Below, one piece after another: positions 7,935 through 9,108 of a stretch of DNA of 10,758 bases. The notes under the pieces are model-generated. The model saw only the letters and a program-made list of their open reading frames with translations, was not told where the DNA came from and did no database searches. A program made the translations under genes and the position numbers. Origin of the DNA: an uncultured Bacteriovoracaceae bacterium (GTDB taxonomy: Bacteria > Bdellovibrionota > Bacteriovoracia > Bacteriovoracales > Bacteriovoracaceae); the NCBI GenBank assembly GCA_964012805.1, contig CAXGUD010000079.1, forward strand, positions 1-10,758, read 5' to 3'. Numbering within the stretch: position 1 is the stretch's first letter; the number at the start of each line of letters is the position of its first letter.

Positions 7935-8351
7935 ATGAGAAATACTTTATTGCTTTTGTTTTTATTTATGACACCTTTAAAATACTCTTATTCATTTATA
8001 CCCTTTGATCCTCCAAAACTTGAAAGTTGGACGGAAAGAAGATGTTATAAGATTCTTTTCGGGACTGCTAAGGAATGTTATAATGCTTATCATAATAATG
8101 AGTTTAGGGGGAACTACCATCCTAAAGTATGGTATACAGATACAGGTGATGTAGATTTTTTTAAAAATAATATTGATAATTCAATTAACTTTATGAGCCC
8201 ATCTTTAAAAACAGAATTGATTTTAAAATCACTCAGCAAATCAATAAAAGAAAAAGTAAGAATTAAAATTTTAGAAAAGATGTGCGAAAACTCACCTGAA
8301 AAATTTAATTTAATTGCAAATGAACAAGAAAAAAAATATTGCCAAAACTAA
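7935..8351 (+). CDS. Small secreted Cys-containing protein, 138 aa, unknown function
   Basis: RBS AAAGGA at 7922-7927; starts 15 bp after the previous stop. Signal-peptide-like N-terminus, ERRC-x4-FG-x4-CY motif, helical C-terminal half. Confidence 0.8.
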   Translation: MRNTLLLLFLFMTPLKYSYSFIPFDPPKLESWTERRCYKILFGTAKECYNAYHNNEFRGNYHPKVWYTDTGDVDFFKNNIDNSINFMSPSLKTELILKSLSKSIKEKVRIKILEKMCENSPEKFNLIANEQEKKYCQN

Positions 8352-8370
8352 ATAATTAAAGGATTTAAAA

Positions 8371-8709
8371 ATGAAATTAAAGTGTTTATTTTTTACTTTT
8401 ATCCTCTCTTTTAGCTTCTCTGGTTTTACCCAACAATGTTTGAATTGGACTACTGAGAAATACTGTACCATTTGGAAAGATGAAAACACCTGTGTTAAGG
8501 AAGAGGAAAGAAAGTCTTGTCAACAAAAATCCAATGATAGAGCTCAGGTTGAATCAGTCGATGATCTTAACACATATGTTAAAAATTCTTTGAATACTCT
8601 AAATATAGAATTGAACAAGAAAGAGAATATTGAGTTACTTAAACCTCAAATAAGGTTTTTAGTAAGACAAGAAATATTGAAAATTAAGAGTAAAATCTTA
8701 AATGAATAA
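8371..8709 (+). CDS. Small secreted Cys-containing protein, 112 aa, unknown function
   Basis: RBS AAAGGA at 8358-8363. Signal-peptide-like N-terminus and a four-Cys hairpin-like region. The helical C-terminus aligns without gaps to the 138-aa neighbour. Confidence 0.8.
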   Translation: MKLKCLFFTFILSFSFSGFTQQCLNWTTEKYCTIWKDENTCVKEEERKSCQQKSNDRAQVESVDDLNTYVKNSLNTLNIELNKKENIELLKPQIRFLVRQEILKIKSKILNE

Positions 8710-8724
8710 AAAAGGATACAAAAA

Positions 8725-9108
8725 ATGAAACTTTTAATTATTATTGTTCCTTTATTTTTAATATCATTCTCCGTAAAAGCTGGTGATATACTAAGAGAGG
8801 ACTACAGGGATAAAATTAGTAATTTCTCAGATCAAATTGTAAACAATGATCCTTTTAGTGATTCAAATAGTGAATTCAATAAAGAGCTCGATAAAGTTAT
8901 AAACGAAATTGTTGATAAAGAGATGGAAATTTTATTCACAGAATTAGGTATTGAAGTAACAAAAGAACAAGTTGATGAACCTGTAAAAGTAGAAAATGAT
9001 TCTTCAGAGCCGAAAAAAAATTGTAGAAAAGAAAGGCGTTGCAGGCCAACTCGTTTTGGTGCTGGTTCAACTTGCTGGACTACCGAAGTTTGTACTCCGG
9101 TTCAATAA
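8725..9108 (+). CDS. Small secreted acidic protein with C-terminal four-Cys motif, 127 aa, unknown function
   Basis: RBS AAAGGA at 8711-8716. Signal peptide ending V-K-A. C-terminal CRKERRC-x4-FG-x4-CWTTEVC. Confidence 0.8.
   Translation: MKLLIIIVPLFLISFSVKAGDILREDYRDKISNFSDQIVNNDPFSDSNSEFNKELDKVINEIVDKEMEILFTELGIEVTKEQVDEPVKVENDSSEPKKNCRKERRCRPTRFGAGSTCWTTEVCTPVQ

Follow-up and report, generated by a model that had tools for sequence, protein, structure and literature searches.

Three small exported proteins encoded in tandem next to a large secreted protein in a Bacteriovoracaceae bacterium: two candidate exchangeable partner subunits among them

In the genome of an uncultured Bacteriovoracaceae bacterium, three small genes in tandem follow the gene for a large predicted lipoprotein. 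Do these genes represent a single cryptic family, as proposed in a preliminary description of this DNA, and what might their products do beside the large protein? The window analyzed here, that is, the entire stretch of 10,758 nucleotides, is the whole contig C79 of this genome (G000; 4.47 Mb, 130 contigs, 35% GC), and near-identical DNA is present in marine metagenomes. The gene order is LipA (minus strand), LipB, the ORFs for proteins of 138, 112 and 127 aa, an ORF for a 245-aa protein and a gene for an S8 protease. The coordinates of the three small plus-strand ORFs and the hydrophobic N-termini of their products were borne out; these ORFs are on the same strand as LipB, with gaps of 15 nt between LipB and the 138-aa ORF, 19 nt between the 138-aa and 112-aa ORFs, and 15 nt between the 112-aa and 127-aa ORFs. 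LipA and LipB diverge from a 109-nt gap (4046-4154), and downstream of LipA no partner ORF was found, positions 1-610 of the window being free of any ORF of 50 aa. Scans of the locus for promoters and terminators gave chance-level matches only, and two RNA runs contained less than 0.1 of the sequence words searched. The features of the window are as follows.

611-4045, minus strand: LipA, predicted 1144-aa lipoprotein, divergent paralog; residues 470-945 have cephalotoxin/DUF684/Cry-N feature neighbors
4155-7919, plus strand: LipB, predicted 1254-aa lipoprotein of the large family without a name, directly 5' of the small genes
7935-8351, plus strand: 138-aa exported protein with a signal-like N-terminus, a Cys37-Cys48 hairpin head, a helical tail and a Cys pair at 117/136
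8064-8108, plus strand: variable patch of the 138-aa protein (aa 44-58), from a second allele
8151-8273, plus strand: aa 73-113 of the 138-aa protein, its helical tail module, from the alignment, the tail profile and hhalign
8371-8709, plus strand: 112-aa exported protein with a four-Cys head containing two C-x-x-W motifs and a helical tail
8557-8679, plus strand: aa 63-103 of the 112-aa protein, its helical tail module, from the alignment, the tail profile and hhalign
8725-9108, plus strand: 127-aa exported protein in which an acidic part (net -14 over aa 20-96) precedes a basic four-Cys tail
8887-8925, plus strand: helix motif of 13 residues in the 127-aa protein, similar to the end of a partner tail
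9013-9105, plus strand: basic C-terminal 31-mer of the 127-aa protein, beginning with a Lys-Lys pair, a putative released peptide
9133-9870, plus strand: 245-aa protein; weakly similar genes lie beside S8 proteases on contigs C110 and C85
9867-10757, plus strand: kexin-like S8 protease, cut short where the contig ends; closest relatives of solved structure 3HJR/3WQB and kexin

The sequence elements on which the proposed family was based are all present: the ungapped 41-aa match between the 138-aa and 112-aa proteins (12 identities on recount), the ERRC-x4-FG-x4-C-(Y/W) pair at 8034-8081 in the 138-aa protein and 9031-9078 in the 127-aa protein, and L-x3-I-x3-V-x3-(I/M) in all three. The pairwise similarity itself is weak. 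When local alignments of the mature parts were compared with 5000 shuffles, performed either globally or in 10-residue windows, the best pair, 138/127, reached p 0.012 in the global and 0.092 in the windowed version, and the other pairs gave p of at least 0.074 (138/112, 0.074 and 0.19; 112/127, 0.22 and 0.26). The corresponding BLASTP E values are 0.021 for 138/112, 5e-4 for 138/127 and 11 for 112/127. The likeness between the ERRC..FG region of the 127-aa protein and the head of the 138-aa protein could reflect a short shared hairpin or chance. None of the three proteins has a Pfam match above the cut-off, and within the length range searched (0.55-1.75x) the only homologs of the 138-aa and 127-aa proteins are strain-level variants.

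The large protein family and its gene neighbors

LipA and LipB are paralogs and belong to a real family of secreted helical proteins of approximately 900-1400 aa that lacks an established name. When 1.84 billion representatives were searched with LipA, 44 relatives were obtained at E≤0.001, mostly of 830-1060 aa. The family profile matched 44 of the 401 genomes of the phylum, some of them weakly, as well as 39 of the 238 genomes of the class, and 13/116 and 32/301 genomes in two other groups; these genome samples overlap and the counts include weak matches. One Eisenbacteria genome also matches the profile. The distribution is patchy and includes complete genomes. LipB as a single-protein query recovered no relative among 60 other genomes in which the profile did find some. 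Viral contigs contained no relative, and pattern scans of genome and metagenome contigs returned 1 and 2 loci, respectively, one of these identical to locus L061. In a Pfam scan of 38 family members, none reached a family cut-off. Searches of largely open-access literature turned up nothing on this family or on the classes of its neighbors described below. A third paralog is encoded in G000 on contig C96 (1120-5885, L004/L005; full length about 1556 aa, P0072) and is followed by a 190-aa four-Cys gene with a coiled-coil tail, a layout as in the window.

The conserved order of elements in the family has a Gly/Ala-rich hydrophobic stretch first and then the motif G-P-D-x4-R-H-x2-[IV]-M, after which come a long coiled coil and a helical domain. 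The hydropathy of the Gly/Ala-rich stretch is at least 1.3 in 2 of the 7 members checked, and no stretch of LipB attains this value. The last 456 residues of the L061 member have a predicted fold with a pLDDT of 91. In the Atlas, the nearest neighbors of the L061 protein are a DUF684/CTXL_M cluster (0.90; each of the two families is annotated on 11% of the cluster members), CTXL_M (0.85) and Endotoxin_N (0.82-0.83), all scores being 0.90 or less at a low recognition value (1265). Residues 470-945 of LipA give the same neighbors as the L061 protein, the two proteins being about 16% identical. Among the Pfam matches listed for the large proteins, there is neither DUF684 nor Endotoxin_N.

A wide structural search with the model of the L061 C-terminal domain placed the alpha-latrotoxin prepore (9GO9) ninth, behind mostly designed proteins, with a Z score of 6.3 that is within the noise band of the tool for helical proteins (rmsd 4.3, 141 aligned residues). 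The match covers chain residues 154-354; a structural report on alpha-latrotoxin assigns a helical bundle to residues 116-350 and a stalk to residues 91-155 (PMC11449929), so that the match starts at the stalk end, as does the long first helix of the L061 model. The latrotoxin bundle is called reminiscent of Cry domain I in another report (PMC8630228). Foldseek searches with full LipA, and with the C-terminal domain against PDB and BFVD, returned nothing at E≤0.001, which is no proof of a new fold; the wide structural search with full LipA returned only generic bundles. Family profiles compared with PDB sequences gave only weak matches to coiled coils and designed proteins, and the weak sequence matches of the family include trimeric coiled coils (E at least 0.0026). 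Given that the Z score lies in the noise band and that the recognition value is 1265, each below the trust threshold of the respective tool, we infer, rather than demonstrate, that the large protein resembles pore-forming toxins. As predicted lipoproteins, LipA and LipB may remain tethered.

A census of gene neighbors included 88 distinct ORFs of at least 740 aa that match the family profile (3 from G000, 3 duplicates and 4 weak matches included). In 35 of these 88 rows, a gene for a collagen-like lipoprotein is located immediately upstream of the large gene; a collar-like partner and a partner with ALTTAQ repeats (Pfam PF20080) are each found in 4/88; and 22/88 rows, corresponding to 21 loci outside G000, have a signal-bearing partner that consists of a variable head and a helical tail. 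Rows were labeled as head-and-tail by hand, whereas collagen and collar rows were recognized by pattern and have no backing from Pfam. Another neighbor is present in 7/88 rows, and no partner is visible within the flank in 13/88, several of these approximately 13 rows being short flanks or weak matches. The small head-and-tail genes abut the large gene either alone or in tandem, with tandem pairs at 5 loci, and 22 of the 25 head-and-tail partners contain at least 2 Cys. Within the pairs at L061, L064 and L072, and between P0081 and P0082, the tails are near-identical and the heads differ.

In a FastTree phylogeny of 62 large proteins, from which duplicates and weak matches were left out and in which 21 of the 35 collagen-type rows are represented, the collagen type (20 of the 21 rows), the collar type and the ALTTAQ type each form one starred clade. 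The three G000 copies fall, with support of 88, into a 24-row group together with 18 head-and-tail rows, outside the starred collagen and collar clade. Related large proteins thus share partner labels, so the tree shows replacement of one partner type by another over time, not co-evolution. The collagen-like, collar-like and ALTTAQ partners have the look of binding proteins on stalks, not of inhibitors.

The partner slot is occupied by diverse proteins. Collagen-like lipoproteins of 400-490 aa with C-terminal Gly-x-x repeats are encoded at L130, L131, L132, L137, L138, L140 and L144, and genome G248 has three pairs of a collagen-like and a large gene; the five collagen-like lipoproteins scanned gave no Pfam match at E≤0.01. 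The slot at L133, L134, L135 and L042 holds small collar-like lipoproteins that form one clade, resemble phage tail-collar domains and lack a Pfam match. In relatives with small genomes, ALTTAQ-repeat lipoproteins of about 600 aa accompany long forms of the large gene (L141, L142, L143), with tandem ALTTAQ pairs in G671. In a genome of the same genus (G002; L062:9743-13543), two partners, of 346 and 912 aa, have in common a new Cys-containing head and a helical tail, and the 912-aa protein has a coiled-coil stalk with 36 Cys. At L067 (3773-4786), a 337-aa secreted protein with a Hint-like domain is encoded 3' of the large gene. Proteases that by eye are M28-like, trypsin-like and papain-like are encoded near the large gene at L061, L062, L073 and L014, which may be due to chance; the respective genomes are protease-rich. 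A search of 401 genomes with a partner profile returned its own training genes as the strong matches, plus 11 weak ones (E 3e-4 or worse), and with this query no stand-alone partners. Co-folding of the L072 large protein (residues 25-877) with its partner (residues 27-148) gave a score of 0.00 and an uncertain partner fold, and speaks neither for nor against binding.

Relationship of the small proteins to the partner class

The helical tails of the head-and-tail partners provide a frame for comparison with the three small proteins. We built a focused profile from 19 tails outside G000 (16 derived from loci and three search matches, one of which duplicates L119); the set was picked by eye, after the 112-aa protein had been seen. 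Over the 6905 ORFs of G000, this profile ranks the 112-aa protein 1, the C96 partner 30, the 138-aa protein 62 and the 127-aa protein 278, and the register of the profile is the same as that of the original alignment between the 138-aa and 112-aa proteins. This profile is a weak one of coiled-coil character, and the ranks depend on the settings: over 18 settings, they range from 1 to 346 for the 112-aa protein, from 23 to 473 for the 138-aa protein and from 118 to 1148 for the 127-aa protein (of 6905). With all 25 partners and no hand selection, the respective ranks are 4-346, 258-473 and 244-424 (of 6905). In 16 of the 18 settings, the 112-aa protein is one of the ten best of the 629 secreted small ORFs. 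With an ungapped Gibbs motif, the three proteins rank about 1000-1200 (width 30) or worse, and none of them is among the best 66 matches listed for an HMM built from 18 partners. In leave-one-out runs, four true partners rank 95-412, and a partner held out later ranks 49th.

Comparison by hhalign with 13 outside partners gave P 8.5e-4 for the 112-aa protein, 0.015 for the 138-aa protein and 0.29 for the 127-aa protein, the alignment of the latter falling in another register; the C96 partner reached 7.8e-4, and the 245-aa protein, included as a control, 0.6. The hhalign probabilities are low, 24% for the 112-aa and 3% for the 138-aa protein. Both the 138-aa and the 112-aa proteins have a signal peptide and a Cys-containing head, as is characteristic of the partner class, and the tail of the 112-aa protein agrees with the class profile; the 127-aa protein has its Cys residues C-terminally instead, and its tail does not agree. 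Considering the profile ranks together with the hhalign P values, the 112-aa protein is a fair member of the partner class, the best supported of the three, and the 138-aa protein a probable, weaker one, and membership of the 127-aa protein is not supported.

The idea of a cryptic family is thus supported for the 112-aa protein and less firmly for the 138-aa protein, the evidence coming from the partners that accompany the large gene elsewhere rather than from the three proteins by themselves, and it is not supported for the 127-aa protein: the homologous loci lend independent support to the helical match between the first two proteins and none to the third. The Cys hairpin had been taken as a shared module; given that the Cys heads are not conserved across the partner class, the hairpin is the variable part rather than a family motif. 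Likewise, the shuffled order of modules that had been proposed for the 127-aa protein is without support, because this protein fails the profile comparison. The 13-residue motif of the preliminary description, which was defined post hoc, occurs in 7 of the 624 other small ORFs of G000 that encode a signal and in only 1 of 26 outside partners. A relaxed helix pattern of the same length, also chosen post hoc, occurs in 12/26 partners versus 14/624 background ORFs and is matched by the 127-aa protein.

The head of the 138-aa protein differs between two alleles, both of which are contained in a single run (X2). In the second allele (P0001), 8 of 8 changes are located in aa 44-58, both Cys being spared, and the clustering around the Cys hairpin has p of about 5e-7. 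Over 30 bases, the X2 variant differs from the window at 8 positions in 6 codons; all of these are replacements and none is silent. Selection on a binding surface could account for the patch, as could a single recombination event, two alleles being compatible with both. An origin of the patch in a diversity-generating retroelement (DGR) was rejected: the 130-contig assembly contains no template copy, and the best matches are A-rich runs with 39% identity. One reverse transcriptase is encoded in G000 on contig C4 (72229-72798; 413-aa frame), its type being unclassified.

Possible functions of the small proteins and alternative explanations

Immunity proteins, chaperones, specificity adaptors and peptide precursors had been proposed as roles for the small proteins, and of these, a specificity adaptor fits best with the wider evidence. 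We tentatively favor the view, without claiming even odds for it, that the 112-aa protein and probably the 138-aa protein are targeting or adaptor subunits of a two-part pore-former, the large subunit of which is predicted to be helical and membrane-inserting. Under this scheme, the two proteins would be exchangeable partner subunits of the neighboring large secreted protein: the conserved helical tail would dock on the large protein or oligomerize with it, the variable disulfide head would pick the target surface, and the hydrophobic hairpin and coiled coil of the large protein would then extend into the membrane, as in latrotoxin. The scheme builds on the adjacency of the genes, the head-and-tail anatomy, the recurrence at 21 loci, the conservation of tails next to diverging heads and the location of the allelic patch on the head; the pore-forming nature of the large protein, its binding to the small ones, the targeting role and the target are its predicted elements. 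A broader and more speculative version is possible, in which two-part pore-formers of an undescribed kind are widespread in bacteria, with a 900-1400-aa subunit that resembles Cry, latrotoxin and cephalotoxin proteins and has no binding domain, this domain being supplied by an adjacent exchangeable gene for a small Cys-head coiled-coil, collagen-like, collar-like or ALTTAQ-repeat protein; the present bacterium would then combine three such subunits, tandem adaptors that have a diversifying hairpin tip, and a kexin-like protease of its own that matures the system.

The small proteins could instead be immunity proteins or chaperones, with the tail binding the coiled coil of the large protein and keeping it inactive in the periplasm or on the surface. 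Immunity genes usually take the form of small, diverged genes in tandem beside a toxin, and the layout seen here fits; furthermore, the small proteins are predicted to be Sec-exported, their genes are strictly adjacent to the large gene, and the helix that they conserve could pair with a coiled coil. We consider this explanation rather unlikely because, elsewhere, the same slot holds 400-aa collagen-like, collar-like and 600-aa ALTTAQ lipoproteins as well as a 912-aa coiled-coil protein with the same tail, and because the variation is concentrated in the exposed head. Another possibility is that the large protein is a non-toxic anchor or platform for oligomeric adhesin fibers, the small proteins being miniature fibers for attachment to prey or surfaces. 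Every partner class resembles stalked or trimeric fibers (the Gly-x-x repeats by pattern; the collar likeness with no Pfam match), many of the large proteins are lipoproteins, and trimeric coiled coils are among the weak sequence matches of the large family (E at least 0.0026). Against this stand the toxin-type helical domains among the feature neighbors of the large protein, the family-wide hydrophobic hairpin ahead of the long coiled coil and the patchy distribution (44/401 genomes), and we view such a platform as unlikely. There is very little probability, in our estimate, that the three proteins are simply unrelated and look alike on account of Lys/Glu/Ile/Leu-rich helices and common Cys hairpins: the pairwise shuffle tests are barely or not significant and unselected profiles perform poorly, as expected under such chance likeness, but the 112-aa protein is among the top 10 of the 629 secreted small ORFs in 16/18 settings, the register of the profile equals that of the original alignment, and the gene position is the same as at 21 other loci.

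In the remaining explanation, the small proteins would be precursors of disulfide hairpin peptides released by the downstream kexin-like protease. For all three proteins together this is improbable, given that the hairpin of the 138-aa and 112-aa proteins is N-terminal and that their conserved part is the helix; the peptide-precursor function fits the 127-aa protein only and, for this gene alone, it is possible, if doubtful. The 127-aa protein consists of a signal, an acidic part (net -14), Lys-Lys and a 31-mer (net +6) with Cys at 100, 106, 117 and 123 in hairpin spacing, an anatomy that matches a precursor with an acidic pro-part, a basic site and a cationic Cys-paired peptide. The downstream S8 protease is closest to 3HJR/3WQB (E 5e-38) and kexin, and could process the 127-aa protein or the large protein. 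Elsewhere in G000, however, the pair of a chaperone-like gene and an S8 gene occurs without small Cys genes, no kexin-like gene was seen beside the large gene at other loci (flanks mostly of 1.5-5 kb), and the relatives of the 127-aa protein are its own strain variants only. Most likely, the 127-aa protein is either the precursor of an exported peptide in its own right or a partner that has diverged strongly. A membrane-anchored gene product of 228-265 aa is encoded beside a kexin-like S8 protease three times in G000 (window 9133-10757, C110 and C85); the 245-aa protein, for which no PDB or Pfam match was found, and its kin may be unrecognized external protease chaperones.

Comparison with known systems

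To return to the two-part pore-former that we tentatively favor, the N-terminal pore module of alpha-latrotoxin (9GO9) has, like the large protein, hydrophobic helices, a long helix or coiled coil and a helical bundle. Latrotoxin is matured by furin-like proteases, and a kexin-like gene is present in the operon of the window. Unlike latrotoxin, the large protein has no sequence match and no detected ankyrin or plug domain, is a predicted bacterial lipoprotein and is linked to the toxin by a Z score of 6.3 only, and the binding function would reside on a separate small gene. The nearest language-model neighbors of the large protein, PF27742 (CTXL_M), PF05075 (DUF684) and PF03945 (Endotoxin_N), with scores of 0.82-0.90, are leads.

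A different parallel comes from Bdellovibrio, where the mosaic adhesive trimer fibers of these predatory bacteria are described as variable binding heads on stalks (PMC10769870). The small partners likewise carry variable heads on stalks, but they are only 110-190 aa long, contain no phage-fiber domain above the Pfam cut-off and are tied to a large helical gene. For the protease, a precedent is the Aeromonas ASP with its ORF2 chaperone; ASP activates pro-aerolysin (PMC13492141), a case of maturation of a pore-former by a kexin-like enzyme. The S8 protease of the window is closest to 3HJR/3WQB and is encoded next to a candidate chaperone gene; unlike in the ASP/ORF2 pair, the 245-aa protein lacks a PDB or Pfam match, and the S8 gene and the large gene are not kept together in the other flanks seen.

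The large family has no Pfam model and no clear solved fold, and yet is represented in about 1/10 of the sampled genomes in a phylum of bacterial predators. Should it be a pore-former aimed by a swappable partner, the two genes would constitute a killing or defense module and a bacterial root for the domains of the cephalotoxin and latrotoxin type; should it be a fiber anchor, it would bear on the display of adhesins by predators. The three small ORFs matter chiefly as an entry point to a two-gene system not yet described in the literature searched. In the binary toxins of the PirA/PirB type, the gene for a small putative binding subunit neighbors that for a large subunit containing a Cry-like helical domain, and the layout of the large and small genes is similar. 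The partner in the window differs from that arrangement in being a Cys head on a helical stalk, in its tandem variants and in the unrelated partner classes of other clades; for the small proteins, there is no jelly-roll or Pir-type Pfam match and, among the matches listed, no sequence or fold match to Pir. By analogy with such toxins, the two-gene layout might work as a binary system in which the small subunit serves for binding and the large one is Cry-like.
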